Source of the DNA: Spirochaetaceae bacterium
GTDB taxonomy: Bacteria > Spirochaetota > Spirochaetia > SZUA-6 > Bin103
Length of the DNA: 64,000 nt
Direction: 5' to 3'
Assembly: GCA_028821475.1 (NCBI GenBank)
Contig: JAPPGB010000086.1
Coordinates: 54,896-118,895 of the forward strand
This document shows, one piece after another, positions 11,403-17,811 of this stretch (within the stretch, counting starts at the first letter, position 1; each line of letters begins with the position of its first letter). A program made the position numbers and the translations under genes. The notes under the pieces are model-generated. The model made no database searches. It saw only the letters and a list, made by a program, of their open reading frames with translations, and had not been told where the DNA came from.

Positions 11403-12926
11403 GTGAGCGCACGCCCGGACATCGTATGGGTCATGTGCGACCAGTTGCGCTGGGATGCCGTCGGGTACGCCGGGAACCCGGCGGCGCGCACCCCCAACAT
11501 CGACCGCCTGGCGGAGCGCGGCGCGTGGTTCGAGAGCGCGTACTGTGCTTCCCCGCTGTGCTCGCCGGCGCGGGCGAGCTGGCTCACCGGCACCTACCCG
11601 CACACCCACCGGCTGTGCAACAACTACGCGCCCTCGCGCGAGGGGATCGACGGCTGCACGCTGTCCGACCGGTGCGTGACCATCGCCGACCTGTTGCGGC
11701 AGCACGGCTATGCGTGCGGCAACGTGGGGGTGTGGCACCTGAGCGACGACGCCGTTCCCGCGCACGGCTTTACCGACCACTGGTGCTGCTTCAGCTACGT
11801 CTACGAGAACCTCCCCGGCCCCTTCTTCGGCGACCTGGAAGAGCAGGGCATCGCCAACCCCTACGCCCTGGATGCTCCGGGGATATTCCGCTACGGCCGC
11901 GAGATGCCGCTCGGCGTGCTGACCGACCCACGCCAGCAGCGCACCACCTGGACCGTCGACCAGGCGCTCGCCGTCCTGGAACGCGACCGCGACCAGCCGC
12001 TGTTCCTGCTCGTCGGCGTCAAGGACCCGCATCCACCGATCATCCCACCACCGGAGTTGCTCGCCCTCTACGACCCGGACCGGCTGCCGTTCCCGCACAA
12101 CTTCCACGACCCGCTGGAAGGCAAGCCGCGTTCGCAGGCCCGGCGCCGCGGCCGCGTCCCGCCGGGCTCGGTCACGGACGAGGAATTCCGCACCGTGATG
12201 CGCTACTACTACGCGCTCGTCACCCACGTCGACCGGCAGATCGGGCGCCTGGTCGCGGCGCTCGAACGGGCCGGGCGCCTCGACCGCACCATCTTCGTGG
12301 TGAACAGCGACCACGGCGAGATGCTCGGCAACCACGGCTTCGTGGAGAAGGCGCTGATGTACGAGGAGTCGGTGCGCGTGCCGTGCCTGATCTCCTGGCC
12401 GGAGGCGATACCGGCCGGGCAGCGCGTCACGACTCCGTTCGGCGGGGTGGACCTGGTCCCCACCCTGCTCGGCCTCGCCGGGGCGCCCGCGCCCGCCTCC
12501 CTGGAAGGCCGGTCGATGGCGCCCGCGATCATGGCCGGCGCCGTCCCCGAGCCGGCTCCCGTGTTCGCGGAGGTCGCCGGCGCCGCGGCGATCTACGAGG
12601 GCGACCGCGACCCGGCCCAGCTCGCCGCCCACGTCATGGTGGTCGCGGACCGCTGGAAGTACGTGTGGAACCGCTTCGAGATCGATGAACTGTACGACCT
12701 CGCTGGCGACCCGGCGGAGATGCACAACCGGGCGCAGTCGCCGTCGTGCGCAGAACGCGTGGCCGGGATGCGGCGGCTCATCGTCGCCATGCTGGAGCGC
12801 AACGGTCCCGGCTGGTACGACTGGTGCACCCAACTTCCACACGCCGGGCGTGCCGGGCTTGCCCGGCTACAACCTGTTCCTGCCGATCCCGTTCAGCCGC
12901 TCGTGCCGCATCGTCTGGACACATAA
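11403..12926 (+). CDS. Sulfatase (second paralogue); the last ~30 codons are read through a relic fragment of a DUF2961 gene
   Basis: It has the CSPAR formylglycine motif and a GTG start. The 3' end, 12831-12926, is encoded by the 82-bp relic in a different frame from its origin. Confidence 0.8.
   Translation: MSARPDIVWVMCDQLRWDAVGYAGNPAARTPNIDRLAERGAWFESAYCASPLCSPARASWLTGTYPHTHRLCNNYAPSREGIDGCTLSDRCVTIADLLRQHGYACGNVGVWHLSDDAVPAHGFTDHWCCFSYVYENLPGPFFGDLEEQGIANPYALDAPGIFRYGREMPLGVLTDPRQQRTTWTVDQALAVLERDRDQPLFLLVGVKDPHPPIIPPPELLALYDPDRLPFPHNFHDPLEGKPRSQARRRGRVPPGSVTDEEFRTVMRYYYALVTHVDRQIGRLVAALERAGRLDRTIFVVNSDHGEMLGNHGFVEKALMYEESVRVPCLISWPEAIPAGQRVTTPFGGVDLVPTLLGLAGAPAPASLEGRSMAPAIMAGAVPEPAPVFAEVAGAAAIYEGDRDPAQLAAHVMVVADRWKYVWNRFEIDELYDLAGDPAEMHNRAQSPSCAERVAGMRRLIVAMLERNGPGWYDWCTQLPHAGRAGLARLQPVPADPVQPLVPHRLDT
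12831..12912 (+). pseudogene. 82-bp relic of a DUF2961/GH172-like gene (76/82 identical to 15839-15920, codons 108-134 of the intact gene at 15519-16943)
   Basis: Direct alignment of the two stretches. The relic abuts the AT-rich island at 12913. Confidence 0.7.
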
Positions 12927-12992
12927 TTATGTTACTACAAATGGATTGCAGCTCCTCCCTACCTCGGCGGCCGAATTATCTCCGATCGCTTG

Positions 12993-13020
12993 TTGACAAT
13001 TTCGGAAAAAGCTGTATTGT
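12993..13020 (+). promoter_or_regulatory. Sigma70-like promoter candidate for the island operon (TTGACA-N16-TATTGT)
   Basis: The -35 element is at 12993-12998 and the -10 at 13015-13020. It lies about 30 bp upstream of the GAAGG RBS and the ATG at 13050. Confidence 0.4.
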
Positions 13021-13049
13021 CCGGGCACGCGACTTGGCGTGAAGGTTTC

Positions 13050-13541
13050 ATGCGATTGATTACGACTACCAGTGCACAACAACACCGCATTCACTTTGAG
13101 ACGAGGAAGGGTACCCCTATTGTCAACTCCCAGTCGCCGGTCATCGCAGCGTGGCAGACCAACCAGTTCTCCCAACTCCAACGACGGTACCCCAAAATAG
13201 TACATCGTACCGGGCCTTCCGGTTTCTACAACTGTCATGGACTCGTCTTCGCGTCGCGTCGCGCGGAGATATACACTCCTGAAGTTAACAAGATTCTTCA
13301 TGAAGATTGCTACAGTGAGATTAGGCCGCTACAAGACGTGAAACCTGGGGATGTCATTCTATACTATGACTCCGACGGGGACATTGAGCACTCTGGAATT
13401 GTAGTTGCCGAACCGAGAGCCGACACGCTACTTATTCCGATGGTGGTGAGCAAGTGGGGCGCGTGGCGTGAGGTGGTCCATTTCGCCAATGATTGCCCGT
13501 ACACTTTCGCGGACGCAAGATACTACAGAGTGGTGTCATGA
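13050..13541 (+). CDS. Island ORF1: predicted papain-fold (NlpC/P60 or CHAP-like) Cys/His hydrolase, 163 aa
   Basis: There is a Cys in YNCHGLVFAS and a downstream His in DIEHSGIVV, in the NlpC/P60-CHAP order, with a GAAGG RBS. The track ORF starts at TTG 12990, which overlaps the promoter. This is a motif-level call only. Confidence 0.5.
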   Translation: MRLITTTSAQQHRIHFETRKGTPIVNSQSPVIAAWQTNQFSQLQRRYPKIVHRTGPSGFYNCHGLVFASRRAEIYTPEVNKILHEDCYSEIRPLQDVKPGDVILYYDSDGDIEHSGIVVAEPRADTLLIPMVVSKWGAWREVVHFANDCPYTFADARYYRVVS

Positions 13542-13981
13542 TCGATCTCTTGGAGAACCGCGTATATTCTGTTGCTGATACTCTGTTGGTCGCAAACACA
13601 CCTGTTTACTTGCTCAAGCGTCTGCGACAGTCTCTCGTGGACCTTGCCAAGGAAATCCCCATTGACCGGATAGTCGAGGAGTTGCGCAAGGAACTGTCTG
13701 ATTCATCCCCGAATCAATTCGACCTCCAGAAAACAGCGTACGTGTACGCGTTATTTGTGTTGATGACGTACGAGCCATACCAATATGTCCGGGACGAGCT
13801 CCGTTGGATCCGCGAAAGTGGACTCCGTTGGATCCGCGAAGTAATTGAACACTACGAGCGCTCGGCAGTGTCCTTGGATTCGGTCACGGTTGACATTCCC
13901 GCTCGGAACGTACGGTTCTATACGACCACAGCAACGGATAATACCAACACACCTATCTCCTTGGATATCGCTCAGGGATGA
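13538..13981 (+). CDS. Island ORF2: hypothetical protein (147 aa, predicted helical)
   Basis: It is coupled to ORF1 by an ATGA overlap. It contains an internal 18-bp direct duplication (LRWIRE x2). I recognise no family. Confidence 0.45.
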   Translation: MIDLLENRVYSVADTLLVANTPVYLLKRLRQSLVDLAKEIPIDRIVEELRKELSDSSPNQFDLQKTAYVYALFVLMTYEPYQYVRDELRWIRESGLRWIREVIEHYERSAVSLDSVTVDIPARNVRFYTTTATDNTNTPISLDIAQG

Positions 13982-14418
13982 AGTCTATCTTCTTCGTAGT
14001 CTCCGAGGGATCGTCAATCGATATTTCGACCAATGCCCTCTCTATCTTCAACATTATTGAAGGCATTAGTTCCGCGAGTCTGCCCCTCATTATCCCGAAA
14101 TGCATAATAACTCTAGTTGTGGAACGGGAGGAAGGCGATCCCGAACCGATAGAGGGTCGCATCACCATAACCAACAACGAGCATGAGATACACTCAACTC
14201 CGGCGCAAATCCATGCCCGAGGTGCGCCCGGCGCGAGGCTGTCAATCACAATAAACGGGCTTCCGGTTCATGCTCCTGGCAAACTGACCTTCAAGTATAC
14301 AGTTGACGATTCAAACTTTGAGGCGCAGACTAGCATAAGCGTATCAGAACCCAAGGTCTCAGGGGAACAACATAGTGAGCCTGCGGGCTCTATATCGACG
14401 CCGCAGCCTTCTTGCTGA
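13978..14418 (+). CDS. Island ORF3: hypothetical protein (146 aa, predicted beta-rich)
   Basis: It is coupled to ORF2 by an ATGA overlap. I recognise no family. Confidence 0.45.
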   Translation: MKSIFFVVSEGSSIDISTNALSIFNIIEGISSASLPLIIPKCIITLVVEREEGDPEPIEGRITITNNEHEIHSTPAQIHARGAPGARLSITINGLPVHAPGKLTFKYTVDDSNFEAQTSISVSEPKVSGEQHSEPAGSISTPQPSC

Positions 14419-15080
14419 GACAAAGATCTAGTCGGATCGTCAATAGATTGGTTGATATACAGAGCAGTGCTATCAGAGACGATCCCGCCATTGGGCTCTA
14501 TGCGGCTCAGATGGACGAGATAAAGAAGCGCGCCGATGTCGTAGCATGCTTTCTGACACGTCGGTGTACTGCGCTGTATGATGTGCCGAGTGCTGAATGC
14601 GTAGCGCTGCAGATTCGCAAGATACTGGAGTTGATTGCGCTGGCTTCTCTGGTTGCGAACAAGGCGGAGTACGCGGCGATGCATGCGAAGTTTGAAGAAC
14701 ACTGGAAGGCGAAAGAGATTCTGGACAACATCAGAGAGATCAATCCTAAATTCTATCCTGTTCCAACAATGCAGCATAGAAGGGAAGACGGGATATTCGA
14801 TAATCAGCCAGTTAAGACCGGCTTTCTCACAGCCGACAACTTCAAGACTCTATATGATCAGTGCTCTAAGCTGCTTCACGTACGAAACCCTTTTTCCAAG
14901 AAGGCAGCCGGTGATGCAAAGCGATTCCTGAAGGACGCAGCTCAGTGGATGAACAGAATTCGTGTGCTTCTAAATCATCACGAGATCATACTTGCAGGCC
15001 GTGATCAGTTGATCATCTGCCTAATGCGAAGCGAAGACGACGGACAACCGCACGCTGCCCTGTTCGAATTAGTAAAGTAA
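14412..15080 (+). CDS. Island ORF4: hypothetical protein with a C-terminal HEPN-like Rx4HH motif (possible RNase)
   Basis: It overlaps the ORF3 stop. It has a C-terminal motif NRIRVLLNHHEI (R-x4-H-H) in a predicted helical protein. The start codon is uncertain: TTG at 14412 or ATG at 14511. Confidence 0.4.
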   Translation: MLRQRSSRIVNRLVDIQSSAIRDDPAIGLYAAQMDEIKKRADVVACFLTRRCTALYDVPSAECVALQIRKILELIALASLVANKAEYAAMHAKFEEHWKAKEILDNIREINPKFYPVPTMQHRREDGIFDNQPVKTGFLTADNFKTLYDQCSKLLHVRNPFSKKAAGDAKRFLKDAAQWMNRIRVLLNHHEIILAGRDQLIICLMRSEDDGQPHAALFELVK

Positions 15081-15518
15081 CTTGCCCACTCAAACGTCGC
15101 GAAAAATCCACAACGGTAGCCAAGACGACGACGCTTTCTTTGTGAGGGGCTAACAGCACTGCGCAGTGTCGTCAACCCTGCCGTGTGAGCGTTTGGTAGG
15201 CTCTACTGCTCGCTCCTTCATTCGGTCCCTTACGAGCTTCTCTGGAGATTCTCGAGGTCGAGAACCCATCGAAGAGCGTATAGCATGGTCAAAGGTCTCT
15301 GCTCCCCAGGTCGCGCGGTCATTTTTGTAAACGACCAAGCCCCTATCGGTATCAAGAAGTCTAGTGGTGTTGCCCCGCAACAACCTGGCTTGTACGATTG
15401 ATGTGCCGGGAGGCTGGGAGGCTGTCTGACTGCGGCGGGCTGTCCCTGTCGCCGGTCGGGTGGACGCCGCAGGCGGCGCTCCGGGGCATGAGGCCGGCAG
15501 CTTCAGGAGGCTGACAAC

Positions 15519-16943
15519 GTGAACCAGTTCCCCACTACGACGGTCCAGGACCCGGCTGTCCCGATGGTCGCGCTGCCCGCGCGGTTCCGTTCGCAGCGTC
15601 AGATCACCAACGTGCGCGACGAGGATGTGCCGGCGGGCGGCTGCGTCGACATTCTGGACGTGGAGGGCCCCGGCGCCGTGCGCCACGTCTGGCTGCTGTA
15701 CGGCACCGGCCGGCGGCTGGAGATCACCGTCGACGGCGCGTCCGTGCCGCAGGTCGACGTGCCGTTCGACCCGTTCTTCGGCATCATGAACGACCTGCAG
15801 CCCTACCCGGTCGACTGCGCCGCCTACACCGTGCTGCCCAACTTCCAGACGCCGGGCGTACCGGGCGTGCCCGGCTACAACCTGTTCCTGCCGATCCCGT
15901 TCAGCCACTCCTGCCGCATCCGGCTGCACCTGCCGGCCACCGGCGAGCGGCGCGTGTCGACCATGGTGGACTGGCAGCAGTATGACGCCGGCACCGACCT
16001 CACGCCGTTCCGCCTCGGCGCCGAATACCATCGCTACCTGCCCGCCCCGCCGCGCAACCGCGCCTATCGCATCGCCGACGTCACCGGCAGCGGCTTCATC
16101 GCCGGCGTGGTGCTCGGCGCCCGGCAACGCAACCACACCGACATGGTGTACCACACCGGCGGCATGTCGATCCTGATCGACGGCGAGGACGACCCGCACG
16201 TGATCCGCGGCATCAACATGGAAGACGACTTCGGGTTCTCCTGGGGATTCCACGAGCGGCAGACGCGCTGGATCGGCTCGCCCTACCACCGGCGGCGCTC
16301 CCGCACCGACCAGGACGGCGTGATCTACCGCTTCTTCGGCCCCGACCCGATCGCCTTCCGCTCCTCGATCTCGCTGCGCTGCGGGTCGCGCGACGACGAC
16401 ATCGAGACGATGGCTTACTACTACCGGATCGCCGGATCGGAGGAGGAGGCGGCGCCGGCGCCGGTGCTGACCCCGGACCGCTGGCTGGTGACCGGCTTCC
16501 ACGACGGCGGCGGCGACTGGCAACGGTTCAGCGCGCCCGAGGAACCGGAAACCGTCCCGCACGACCGCTGGCGCGACCACTTTGCCGACCGGCCGAGGTT
16601 CATCCGCGAGGTGCCCCCCAACCGCGGCTGGATCGACTTCCGCTTCTCCGGCATCGACCCGGCGCTGCCCGGCAGCACCTTCGTGAACCGCTCGATGTAC
16701 GCCGCGGGATCGGTGAAAAGTGACCGCGAGTGCCGGGCGGTGCTACGAATCTCCTGTGACGACTGGCTCATCACCTGGCTGAACGGAACGCGTGTCGCAA
16801 CGCTGCGCCACGAGGACGGCTTTCAGACGGCCCGCATTCCGGTGACCTTGCTCCAGGGACGCAACACCCTGCTCATCAAGAACAACAACCTGCACCACTC
16901 GCACGCCGCCTGGGTCGCCAACGTAATGATCGAGGAAGGGTAG
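15519..16943 (+). CDS. DUF2961 (GH172-like) family protein
   Basis: GTG start with an AGGAGG RBS. The 474-aa product is recognised as DUF2961/GH172 by general similarity to DUF2961 proteins; I cannot point to a diagnostic motif. It contains the 82-bp segment duplicated at 12831-12912. Confidence 0.6.
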   Translation: MNQFPTTTVQDPAVPMVALPARFRSQRQITNVRDEDVPAGGCVDILDVEGPGAVRHVWLLYGTGRRLEITVDGASVPQVDVPFDPFFGIMNDLQPYPVDCAAYTVLPNFQTPGVPGVPGYNLFLPIPFSHSCRIRLHLPATGERRVSTMVDWQQYDAGTDLTPFRLGAEYHRYLPAPPRNRAYRIADVTGSGFIAGVVLGARQRNHTDMVYHTGGMSILIDGEDDPHVIRGINMEDDFGFSWGFHERQTRWIGSPYHRRRSRTDQDGVIYRFFGPDPIAFRSSISLRCGSRDDDIETMAYYYRIAGSEEEAAPAPVLTPDRWLVTGFHDGGGDWQRFSAPEEPETVPHDRWRDHFADRPRFIREVPPNRGWIDFRFSGIDPALPGSTFVNRSMYAAGSVKSDRECRAVLRISCDDWLITWLNGTRVATLRHEDGFQTARIPVTLLQGRNTLLIKNNNLHHSHAAWVANVMIEEG

Positions 16944-17243
16944 CCGGACACCATTGGGCATACCGACATCTATAGTGAAGGTCCGACATCGTTGGTCCTC
17001 CATTCCTATTCCACTCAACAATCCAAATCCAGTCTGAGTGAGATCCAGATCTTGAGCGAGCTTCTCTGTGATGGAACAACCAGTTGCACCTGTATCGACG
17101 ATGGCTTTCACTTGATGCTGGTCACGAGGACCGAAGCCAACTGGAGGCTCGCCACGGTGTTCTGAAATCCCGACATCGACAGTCAACGTGCTTACGCGTC
17201 CTGCGTAACGCACAGAGAACGCCGCTGATGGCGTTTTAGCCAC
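16743..17243 (-). CDS. Retropepsin-like (clan AA) aspartic protease domain protein
   Basis: It has the DTGA catalytic motif (AIVDTGATGCSIT) about 45 aa from a GTG start. The roughly 100-aa domain ends near 16935. The ORF reads on another 190 bp antisense into the DUF2961 gene before a stop, so the true 3' end is doubtful. Confidence 0.5.
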   Translation of the reverse strand: MAKTPSAAFSVRYAGRVSTLTVDVGISEHRGEPPVGFGPRDQHQVKAIVDTGATGCSITEKLAQDLDLTQTGFGLLSGIGMEDQRCRTFTIDVGMPNGVRLPFLDHYVGDPGGVRVVQVVVLDEQGVASLEQGHRNAGRLKAVLVAQRCDTRSVQPGDEPVVTGDS

Positions 17244-17505
17244 TTTCCAGTCTGACTCTTGAATGAAAGGTTAGCGTATACGCTTCTGGCCCTGGCTTAC
17301 ACTCTTGAACTATGAAGGTTCCGCGATCATGCTTCTTCAACGCTTCGGCTACGGCCTCTTGGTGAGATCCATACGCGCCTACTACTTCTTCGCCAACTAT
17401 CACCACGAACTGATCCGGGTACTTTTCGACCAGCTGATCCTGATTGGCAAGGAAGTACTGGAAAGACCTATCAAGCGTCTCGACCTTTCCGCTATGTATT
17501 GACAT
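17236..17505 (-). CDS. Small hypothetical protein (89 aa, DUF5678-like) coupled to the retropepsin gene
   Basis: An ATG preceded by GAAGGAGA. It overlaps the downstream protease start by 8 bp. The region has low GC. Confidence 0.5.
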   Translation of the reverse strand: MSIHSGKVETLDRSFQYFLANQDQLVEKYPDQFVVIVGEEVVGAYGSHQEAVAEALKKHDRGTFIVQECKPGPEAYTLTFHSRVRLESG

Positions 17506-17811
17506 GAACAGCCGTCTCCTTCAACTGTGAGGCAGCGACACGCCAAGCCCTCCATGTGAACCGTGAACGGCGCTCTGGCGTCAGGAAGGACCATAGATCT
17601 GCCACGATGAAGTATACCCTCCTTCGTGAGCTGATTCCAACTCACGATGCAAGCGGTCGAAAACCGTATCTCGGGTCGGCCGACGCGTCAAGCATGATTC
17701 GGGGCCAATGCGGGGCCAATCGTGGGTCTGTGTATGGTGCCGGCTCCTCCTTCGTCTTGCCAGCGCCGCGGGCGCGGCCGTCTCGGTCGCGGATGGGCCG
17801 GCCCCGACCGG

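Follow-up and report, generated by a model that had tools for sequence, protein, structure and literature searches.

The AT-rich island very probably comprises a three-gene operon and a passenger gene

The AT-rich stretch, flanked by a sulfatase gene and a GH172 gene in the metagenome-assembled genome (MAG) of a member of the Spirochaetaceae, is very probably composite, comprising a trio of genes (ORF1, ORF2 and ORF3) and an unrelated passenger gene (ORF4). Module 1 (12913–14418) is an operon of three genes, self-contained and with a promoter-like site of its own. Module 2 (~14432–15439) is a solitary ORF4, with a history of gain and loss separate from that of the trio. A preliminary description had taken the four genes as one system, but ORF4 is present in none of 80 trio loci and the trio is not found near the closest homologues of ORF4 (76–78% at the amino acid level). 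The composite anatomy with both modules of a conflict type has a probability of about 0.5 as the whole explanation. Coordinates are those of the window, the whole 64-kb stretch of DNA that was analysed. Starting at the 5′ side, the features are as follows.

11403–12828, + strand: sulfatase gene (Pfam Sulfatase, 1.4e-50)
12829–12912, + strand: left repeat copy, a GH172 gene fragment (codons 107–134) between the sulfatase gene and the island
12913–12992, + strand: left end of the AT-rich island, non-coding
12993–13020, + strand: candidate sigma-70-like promoter, TTGACA-N16-TATTGT, 30 nt upstream of ORF1
13050–13541, + strand: ORF1, first trio gene, 163 aa; predicted divergent cytoplasmic Cys-His hydrolase of the NlpC/P60 superfamily (papain fold)
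13538–13981, + strand: ORF2, second trio gene, 147 aa; ANTPxYL motif and variable C-terminal tail
13978–14418, + strand: ORF3, third trio gene, 146 aa; DUF6941
14511–15080, + strand: ORF4, 189 aa (222 aa if TTG 14412 is used); phrog_13799
15081–15439, no strand: non-coding tail of the ORF4 block, of intermediate GC content
15519–16943, + strand: GH172/DUF2961 gene, intact and of native GC content (Pfam DUF2961, 9.2e-29; GH172 domains on orthologues)
15837–15920, + strand: right repeat copy, within the GH172 gene

The GC content is ~0.70 on either side of the island and falls sharply at 12913, as first described; this edge is the end of the GC-rich repeat copy. The drop is real but does not reach the ~45% originally proposed, with a GC content of 0.513 over 12913–15439 and the lowest value, 46%, reached in a single 300-nt window. 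Homology to the island of the sister locus L007 begins at 12933. On the right the GC content recovers at ~15427–15440 and not at ~15500, and it is at ~15427–15440 that homology to the sister MAG L005 picks up again. The only comparable dips in the 64-kb window are the island itself and a second islet at ~16950–17700.

All four open reading frames are present on the + strand where they had been placed. The ATGA overlaps are found at the ORF1/ORF2 and ORF2/ORF3 junctions, but that proposed for ORF3/ORF4 is not of the ATGA type and hinges on TTG 14412. The TTGACA-N16-TATTGT site that had been noted upstream matches 10 of 12 consensus positions and is conserved in L005 and L007; the promoter scan is itself not significant, with four sites found against 2.0 expected. 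The earlier observation that there is no integrase, tRNA or terminal inverted repeat is borne out, the nearest tRNA being 36.6 kb away, with no flanking inverted repeat and no ORF of integrase size within 12913–15439. Rfam gave no match near the island. None of the proteins had been assigned to a nameable family; two of them do belong to one, ORF3 to Pfam DUF6941 and ORF4 to phrog_13799.

Conservation and spread of the trio

The trio has spread horizontally as a cassette without a recombinase of its own, and its order, tight coupling and low GC content are kept across at least 14 phyla. The order ORF1-ORF2-ORF3 is found in about 71–75 of the 80 species-level loci that were collected with an ORF1 profile (jackhmmer, all ORFs). 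In nine further loci of the 80, ORF1 is followed by a gap (a divergent or unrecognised middle gene) and then ORF3. The compact, coupled and foreign operon of co-occurring genes that had been proposed is therefore seen for ORF1–ORF3 (71 of 80 loci in the same order), but not for ORF4. Adjacent genes overlap by four nucleotides at 40 of the 66 ORF1/ORF2 junctions and at 27 of the 66 between ORF2 and ORF3, and no further gene recurs beside the trio. In 74 of 76 loci the trio is poorer in GC than its flanks (mean 0.46 versus 0.57; Wilcoxon 6e-14). Insertion contexts vary; in one lineage the trio adjoins a tyrosine integrase and Cas9-Cas1. The trio is disrupted in L005, L028, L057, L065 and L089, and two complete copies lie on viral contigs. 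A tblastn search with ORF1 found no match in 72,556 plasmids, and only two hits were obtained in 2.9 million viral contigs, both collections being poor in the phyla concerned. Toxin-antitoxin and defence genes are not usually so scarce on plasmids and in viruses.

Each gene of the trio is under purifying selection. Compared with L007, dN/dS is 0.09 for ORF1, 0.24 for ORF2 and 0.25 for ORF3, with ranges of 0.06–0.24 for ORF2 and 0.13–0.25 for ORF3. The dS of the island (0.28–0.31) equals that of the flanking GH172 gene (0.305), and so the island is old in the clade. Its stable inheritance there under purifying selection would fit any useful accessory function.

The proteins of the trio

ORF1 has an alpha+beta fold of the NlpC/P60 type, with C62 and H114 invariant in 66 sequences, in agreement with the papain-like arrangement first suggested. 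H144, E141 and S134 are also invariant in these sequences, and are candidates for the third polar catalytic residue. The closest known proteins are the NlpC/P60 (MEROPS C40) peptidases/amidases, for example Bacillus cereus BCE_2878 (3H41), Trichomonas vaginalis NlpC1 (6BIM) and Escherichia coli MepS (7V6S). Unlike these, ORF1 has neither a signal peptide nor a wall-binding domain, possesses in addition a conserved region at the N-terminus and an S-K-W-G...E..H block, and always opens a cytoplasmic three-gene cassette. It falls below every Pfam and NCBIfam gathering score, the best being Amidase_6 (13.7 bits, cutoff 23.2) and RipC (17.6, cutoff 425); the NLPC_P60 model matched weakly, in 23 of 66 ORF1 homologues. 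Hydropathy over 19 aa peaks at 1.17 in ORF1 and at no more than 1.6 in any family member, consistent with the lack of a hydrophobic N-terminal segment. No additional Pfam domain was found.

ORF2 is fast-evolving, with a nearly invariant A-N-T-P-x-Y-L motif. It was found after ORF1 as 74 ORFs across the loci, and in the alignment N20 is invariant while T21, P22, Y70 and W98 are conserved at ≥90%. Searches of Pfam, PDB, PADLOC and PHROG gave no family for it. ORF3 matches DUF6941 with 30.2 bits against a cutoff of 27 (E = 6.2e-7), as do 49 of 53 trio ORF3 homologues (best E = 1.4e-11). DUF6941 comprises 828 representative clusters, nearly all of them stand-alone proteins of 125–170 aa, and ORF3 itself probably consists of a small domain rich in beta structure and a tail that varies. 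Domain searches revealed no antitoxin-like DNA-binding domain in ORF2 or ORF3, and no PHROG family matched ORF1–ORF3.

Possible functions of the trio

The trio is tentatively read as a putative conflict module, acting in defence or addiction, with odds a little short of even. The reading is based upon its patchy spread, variable insertion contexts and disrupted copies, the integrase and Cas9-Cas1 neighbour and the viral copies. ORF1 would be the effector and would cleave an amide or ester bond of some cytoplasmic molecule, for instance a protein, a lipid or the peptide of a peptidoglycan precursor, and ORF2 and ORF3 may restrain or direct it as antitoxin-like or sensor-like partners. A search of PADLOC-DB v2 gave no credible match for the four proteins that had been put forward as candidate defence components, only a sub-threshold match of KwaB to ORF2 (E = 0.016). 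Nor does the trio have the defence-island signature that would have been anticipated, its 141 nearest neighbours being unrelated and mostly ordinary housekeeping or metabolic genes. Their Pfam families are heterogeneous and of housekeeping types, with none in more than two of the 141, and the only recurrent PADLOC matches are two proteins with kinase-type models (PD-T4-6). By an informal comparison, known defence families near the trio are at about background level.

Three-component toxin-antitoxin modules resemble the trio in having three small coupled genes, patchy horizontal spread and frequent decay. In contrast, neither a chaperone nor an antitoxin DNA-binding domain can be recognised in the trio, which was not found on plasmids and begins with the enzyme gene. 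The amidase effector-immunity pairs of type VI secretion systems (T6SS; Tae/Tai and Tse1/Tsi1) differ in comprising two genes and not three, and no T6SS genes were present in the neighbourhoods inspected. The Tai immunity proteins are periplasmic, whereas the partners in the trio lack a signal peptide, and ORF2 and ORF3 match no immunity family.

An appreciable, though smaller, probability attaches to the trio having a physiological role, as an accessory operon passed on horizontally and not as a conflict system. One example would be a cytoplasmic gamma-glutamyl or murein-peptide amidase assisted by two helper subunits; a deacylase of proteins or lipids, assisted in the same way, would be another. 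Against this, no pathway partner recurs beside the trio. Moreover, its patchy occurrence in at least 14 phyla, its AT-richness relative to the host in 74 of 76 loci and its decay in several genomes are traits of dispensable, mobile genes. It is improbable that the trio is left over from a phage or other mobile element, for instance as a lysis or tail-associated NlpC/P60 hydrolase and the proteins that accompany it. In ~75 of 80 loci the trio stands alone and phage genes do not recur beside it, its three proteins lack PHROG families, ORF1 lacks a signal peptide, a cell-wall-binding domain and a holin partner, and selection is purifying on all three genes.

ORF4 is very probably a separate module

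The start of ORF4 is placed at ATG 14511, 93 nt past the ORF3 stop, both in the gene call on the identical Logan contig L001 and in the NCBI entry (189 aa in each). The protein matches phrog_13799 with E = 7.8e-39 (residues 29–204 of 222 on profile positions 8–177 of 198) and has more than 300 homologues. R36, E40, N50, W65, H123, P127, L153, L154, H156 and H157 are invariant, and N155 is present in 61 of 63 sequences. The AF2 model (pLDDT 92.8) is a four-helix bundle with a small C-terminal sheet.

An Rx4HH motif of the HEPN type had been proposed at the C-terminus, and ORF4 was compared with the HEPN toxins of HEPN-MNT toxin-antitoxin systems (7AE2, 8XDJ and 5YEP) and other HEPN RNases. H156 and H157 are indeed invariant, but position 151, the putative arginine, is occupied by Arg in 23 of 63 sequences, by Ile in 19 and by Lys and Met in 9 each. 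The HEPN assignment is left weak because this arginine is not conserved. K/R149, present in 60 of 63 sequences, would make a [KR]x6H motif, but this is mostly lysine, and no conserved Rx4-6H motif is found among the 63 homologues.

In Yersinia phage vB_YpM_50 the homologue WP_021519103 (35% identity, E = 7e-26) is flanked by gpA/DUF3850 and the portal gene, and its gene is found in P2-like prophages of 28 of 5,426 complete E. coli genomes. The gpA-gpQ (old/tin) locus of P2-like phages is an anti-phage hotspot (Rousset et al. 2022, PMC9122126), where WP_021519103 is listed in Table S5 as hypothetical cargo. This protein is given only as ‘hypothetical’ (PMC9122126); the hotspot location is circumstantial for a defence role. 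The ORF4 of the window is by contrast chromosomal and outside a prophage, and hotspot cargo is not always defensive. In L002 a homologue neighbours AAA_21/RloB and N6_Mtase genes, in L107 one neighbours an MmeI-type enzyme, and further homologues are carried by plasmids. The family is a putative anti-phage or exclusion gene, an assignment with not quite an even chance of being correct. ORF4 may act alone as a phage-exclusion protein via its invariant R/E and N-H-H residues.

In the sister genomes L005 and L007 the trio occupies the same locus but no intact ORF4 accompanies it; a remnant of 31 nt of that gene is kept in L005. Together with the absence of ORF4 from the 80 trio loci and of the trio from beside the closest ORF4 homologues, this makes it very unlikely that the four genes constitute a single coupled cassette, of defence or polymorphic-toxin type, made up of hydrolase, HEPN RNase and two unknowns. 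The likely position of the ORF4 start, the variable HEPN arginine and the lack of T6SS, CDI or Rhs context in the neighbourhoods inspected also argue against such a cassette.

The flanking genes and an 84-nt direct repeat

An 84-nt direct repeat that was overlooked in the preliminary description bounds a unit of 3,008 bp. Its copies are identical at 79 of 84 positions (94%), with a spacing of 3,008 nt and an exact core of 39 nt (15868–15906 = 12860–12898). GH172 residues 101–134 match the left copy by tblastn, and 82 of its 84 bases match the GH172 allele of the sister MAG. Since the repeat encloses 400 nt of native GH172 sequence in addition to the AT-rich DNA, it does not bracket foreign DNA in the manner of att sites; the integrase, tRNA target and att-type repeats at both ends that characterize an integrative genomic island are not found here.

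That the island is an assembly chimera can virtually be dismissed, for although the window derives from a MAG, the repeat bounds the unit with a sister-strain allele in its left copy, the k=31 graph (L001) cannot separate a linear path from a loop and the sulfatase-to-repeat junction has no independent confirmation, two other assemblies of related genomes from different samples have this AT-rich trio likewise flanked by the sulfatase and GH172 genes, island and flank dS are equal and the repeat-to-island junction is present in an independent Logan unitig. The repeat copies differ at five positions and are therefore not one collapsed sequence. At the left junction the native 3′ end of the sulfatase gene (approximately the last eight codons) is replaced by the repeat copy, so that the ORF runs out of frame to 12926; the sulfatase of L007 goes on past the position equal to 12826 as ...WCLQEPARE and a stop.

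Organization of the AT-rich island

The island is located between a sulfatase gene and a gene encoding a GH172 (DUF2961) protein (15519-16943). It contains four genes:

13050-13541, + strand: ORF1, a predicted Cys-His hydrolase
13538-13981, + strand: ORF2, a protein with no match in Pfam, PDB, PADLOC or PHROGs
13978-14418, + strand: ORF3, a DUF6941 protein
14511-15080, + strand: ORF4, a member of phrog_13799

The GC content is 0.513 over 12913-15439, compared with ~0.70 on either side, and within the 64-kb window comparable dips are confined to this region and to a second islet at ~16950-17700. The drop reported in the preliminary description is thus real, but its value of about 45% is too low, the minimum over 300 nt within the region being 0.46. 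As an observation, that description was largely right. The four + strand ORFs are present where it placed them, and the ATGA overlaps of ORF1 with ORF2 and of ORF2 with ORF3 are confirmed, but the proposed overlap of ORF3 with ORF4 relies on a TTG codon at 14412. ORF4 starts at the ATG at 14511, 93 nt past the ORF3 stop codon, both in the gene call on a Logan contig (L001, identical in sequence) and in the NCBI protein entry, each giving 189 aa. A ‘Spirochaetaceae bacterium’ MAG encodes a protein (locus tag OXH96_12625) with 100% identity to ORF4; exact-protein look-ups gave no record for the 222-aa form of ORF4, for protein P0012 or for the sulfatase. The promoter-like site TTGACA-N16-TATTGT suggested earlier is located at 12993-13020 and is kept in two related genomes, while the promoter scan overall was not above chance. 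Scans of the region for tRNA, Rfam families and flanking inverted repeats found none, in agreement with the absence of tRNA and terminal inverted repeats noted previously.

ORF1, ORF2 and ORF3 form a conserved cassette

An ORF1 profile was scanned against one genome per species, giving 90 confirmed stretches from many phyla, of which 80 loci were kept. Iterative HMM searches of all the ORFs in these loci found the order ORF1-ORF2-ORF3 in 71 of the 80; in the further nine, ORF1 is followed by a gap of ~500 nt and then by ORF3. The same searches found ORF4 in none of the 80 loci, and the closest homologues of ORF4 (in loci L002 and L003; 76-78% at the amino acid level) have no trio nearby. ORF1-ORF3 therefore co-occur but ORF4 does not accompany them, and the earlier proposal of a single four-gene system is wrong. 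Of the conditions named there as refuting the proposal, a lack of co-occurrence among homologues is thus contradicted for ORF1-ORF3 and borne out for ORF4. No further gene recurs next to the trio, the next-largest neighbour cluster being present in 10 loci. ORF1 overlaps ORF2 by 4 nt in 40 of 66 cases, and ORF2 overlaps ORF3 by the same length in 27 of 66, so that the coupling of the trio genes is conserved.

The cassette is conserved over at least 14 phyla. Trio loci occur, among others, in Spirochaetota (and in Leptospira), Acidobacteriota, Planctomycetota, Verrucomicrobiota, several classes of Pseudomonadota, Bacteroidota, Ignavibacteriota, Nitrospirota, Chloroflexota, Armatimonadota, Omnitrophota, Gemmatimonadota, Myxococcota and KSB1. 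In 74 of 76 loci the trio has a lower GC content than the DNA on either side of it (means 0.46 versus 0.57), with host GC ranging from 32% to 72%. Disrupted copies are found in five loci (L005, L028, L057, L065 and L089). In one of these (L065:5959-6693) a single ORF combines profile positions 3-139 of ORF1 with the second half of ORF3 (positions 59-124); the reading as a domain fusion was rejected, since this is a remnant of the trio left by an internal deletion.

The proteins of the trio

The residues N61-C62-H63-G64, H114-S115, S134-K135, E141 and H144 of ORF1 are invariant among 66 homologues. Its Pfam matches are individually weak, yet consistently indicate the NlpC/P60 clan (NLPC_P60 in 23 of the 66, DUF7689 in 22, Amidase_6 in 21 and DUF1287 in 11, together with CHAP and Amidase_5). 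Neither a hydrophobic leader nor a wall-binding domain was found in ORF1. From these features ORF1 is predicted to be a divergent, cytoplasmic Cys-His hydrolase of NlpC/P60 fold, and would thus have inside the cell a fold known mainly from cell-wall hydrolases. The papain-like arrangement first ascribed to it holds.

The remaining two proteins of the trio have no informative family, ORF2 having none and ORF3 only a DUF. Close to its N-terminus ORF2 carries an almost invariant A-N-T-P-x-Y-L motif, and its tail is variable; a word-indexed search gave only eight matches, which indicates that it evolves fast. A 24-nt tandem duplication lies within ORF2 at 13799-13840, where CTCCGTTGGATCCGCGAA occurs twice and encodes LRWIRE twice. 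The doubled LRWIRE is common to two close relatives (L008 and L011), and distant ORF2 homologues have a single conserved Trp at this position. The DUF6941 family of ORF3 comprises 828 representative clusters, nearly all of them stand-alone proteins of 125-170 aa. Two matching proteins of 1,900 aa are PKD/Ig-repeat surface proteins, in which the match is confined to a 43-aa strand motif, and they were rejected as informative fusions. This hints at a beta-sandwich for ORF3 and at nothing further.

Searches of PADLOC, NCBIfam and PHROGs with ORF1-ORF3 gave no useful match, and profile searches of PDB sequences with all four families gave matches at chance level only. Searching the literature for DUF6941, DUF7689 and WP_021519103, an E. 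coli member of the ORF4 family, gave no match.

ORF4 and its genomic setting

ORF4 falls in no Pfam family; its homologues number >300 and are spread over many phyla. Its AF2 model (pLDDT 92.8) comprises a three-stranded sheet and four long helices, and gave no significant match with Foldseek. The invariant residues include R36, E40, N50, H123, P127, H156 and H157, and 61 of 63 sequences also have N155. The preliminary description assigned ORF4 to the HEPN type from a C-terminal Rx4HH motif. The two histidines (H156 and H157) are indeed invariant, but the arginine is present in only 23 of the 63 sequences, so Rx4H was rejected as a motif of the family. With this and the negative Foldseek result, membership of HEPN is unproven.

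A homologue of ORF4 (35% identity, E 7e-26) is encoded by the P2-like Yersinia phage vB_YpM_50 (L095, 3169-3762), between gpA/DUF3850 and the portal gene. The same gene, WP_021519103, is found in prophages of 28 of 5,426 complete E. coli genomes, for instance in E. coli 2009C-3133 (NZ_CP013025.1, 1987966-1988559; L098). Together with a DUF3850/ASCH gene, WP_021519103 is the principal cargo of unknown nature at the gpA-portal hotspot in P2-like prophages. This location is the gpA-gpQ (old/tin) position, which Rousset et al. (PMC9122126) describe as a hotspot of anti-phage systems and in whose supplementary listing WP_021519103 is entered as hypothetical cargo. Elsewhere, homologues adjoin AAA_21/RloB and a methyltransferase (L002) or an MmeI-type enzyme (L107), and others are on the plasmids pHAL1 (194 kb) and pPspOM7 (6.6 kb), the latter with a MobQ relaxase gene though its PLSDB type is non-mobilizable. 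These surroundings suggest more about function than do those of the trio, and a conflict role (anti-phage or exclusion) for ORF4 is somewhat short of an even bet. Since the family occupies the old/tin hotspot in P2-like prophages of E. coli, a direct test in a model host is possible.

Possible functions of the trio

The surroundings of the trio do not look like a defence island. Its 141 nearest neighbours are mostly metabolic and belong to 115 Pfam families, none found in more than two proteins, and PADLOC gave recurrent matches from only two of the 141, to kinase-type models (PD-T4-6). A tblastn search of 72,556 plasmids with ORF1 gave no match, and in IMG/VR ORF1 is found at two loci only, both with a complete trio close to the contig end. 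In one lineage (L099-L103; GCA_000404905.1, GCA_000493925.1, GCA_000402615.1 and a JGI metagenome) the trio adjoins a tyrosine integrase and Cas9-Cas1; one of these loci (L102) has an inverted arrangement with an integrase fragment in place of ORF3. A pentapeptide-repeat protein gene lies directly upstream of the trio in a related genome (L007:1514-2506), and related ORFs are upstream of the trio in the unrelated loci L008:8303-8683 (- strand) and L020:5306-5635; the association may be loose or due to chance.

On the whole, the trio has the character of a self-contained and dispensable cassette that has spread horizontally. This fits toxin-antitoxin-like or small defence modules without proving such a role. 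The trio corresponds to no known system, and the fold of its enzyme is a familiar one. The first suggestion, a function in defence or toxin immunity, is a reasonable guess; we put the probability of a conflict role for the trio at roughly 0.45. An ordinary accessory physiological role is rather unlikely. A more specific scheme, in which the trio would be a new immune or abortive-infection system of three components with a wide distribution and ORF4 a second, single-gene exclusion factor from a new HEPN-like family, is improbable when taken as a whole. There the cytoplasmic NlpC/P60-fold hydrolase ORF1 would be the effector, and the part of sensor or inhibitor would fall to ORF2 and ORF3. We know of no cytoplasmic NlpC/P60-fold hydrolase that serves as effector among the described anti-phage systems, and if the trio is a defence or addiction module its effector chemistry would be new.

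An island of four unknown genes is thus resolved into two defined units that are open to testing, in the case of the trio in cultured carriers that include Chthoniobacter flavus Ellin428, Dechloromonas hankyongensis, Mesorhizobium sp. AR07 and Leptospira yanagawae. Should a conflict role be absent from both units, they are just two additional hypothetical accessory modules.

The island in related genomes

The same locus is carried by two related assemblies, the Spirochaetaceae MAG L005 (GCA_028818735.1; DNA identity ~94-97%) and L007 (ERZ25068633; ~85-90%). In both, the AT-rich ORF1-ORF3 block is flanked by the same sulfatase and GH172 genes, which rules out that the island arose as an assembly chimera. 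In L007 ORF1 and ORF2 are intact, the ORF3 match covers residues 1-138 and ORF4 is absent. ORF1 of L005 has a frameshift, and there sulfatase position 12330 is fused to island position 12985 by a deletion of 654 bp. All that is left of ORF4 in L005 is a 31-nt remnant (L005:10982-11012, identical to window 14607-14637) that encodes the conserved LQIRKILELI motif and adjoins the GH172 upstream region; ORF4 was therefore formerly present there and then mostly deleted.

Relative to L007 the trio has a dS of 0.28-0.31, equal to that of the flanking GH172 gene (0.305), so the trio was already in the common ancestor of these lineages. With dN/dS values of 0.09 (ORF1), 0.24 (ORF2) and 0.25 (ORF3) it is under purifying selection. 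The trio is foreign in composition, yet it is not a recent acquisition.

An 84-nt direct repeat and a second islet

The island is associated with a direct repeat overlooked in the preliminary description, with 5 mismatches and a spacing of 3,008 nt:

12829-12912: left copy of the 84-nt repeat
15837-15920: right copy of the 84-nt repeat

Codons 107-134 of the GH172 gene make up the left copy, which ends precisely at the GC drop. On its left side it is fused, in this assembly, to a sulfatase gene truncated ~8 codons short of the native stop found in L007, with patchy microhomology at the junction (TAC.AC.GTGC), and on its right side it abuts the island. It matches the GH172 allele of the sister MAG at 82 of 84 positions and the window's own copy at 79 of 84. 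The 3,008-bp unit consists of the island and 400 nt of native GH172 5′ sequence, so both an att pair and a target duplication were rejected as readings of the repeat; recombination between the copies would destroy the GH172 gene. The Logan contig L001 (3,029 nt; window 12869-15897) confirms the repeat-to-island junction. It was rejected as proof of a circular 3,008-bp element and is uninformative on circularity, because the exact core of 39 nt forces a k=31 unitig to end at just these positions, 12869 and 15897. An exact search of JGI metagenomes for the sulfatase-to-repeat junction gave no match.

The repeat may be a recombination scar. Recombination with a related strain could have brought in the island together with an intact GH172 gene, with homology on one side only and the other end joined illegitimately within the resident GH172 gene; the 5′ part of the resident copy would have been deleted afterwards. 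In L007 (4397-4545) there is a paralogous sulfatase 3′ remnant (...LYDWCP*) whose stop codon and the GH172 start codon share an ATGA overlap. The arrangement points to an ancestral sulfatase-GH172 pair with translational coupling, which insertions may have disrupted.

A second AT-rich islet (window 16743-17789) is located just downstream of the GH172 gene, and contains an overlapping gene pair:

16743-17243, - strand: retropepsin-like Asp_protease_2 protein
17236-17505, - strand: DUF5678 protein

In L005 a Uma2-family gene occupies this spot instead, so this intergenic site also exchanges small accessory modules.
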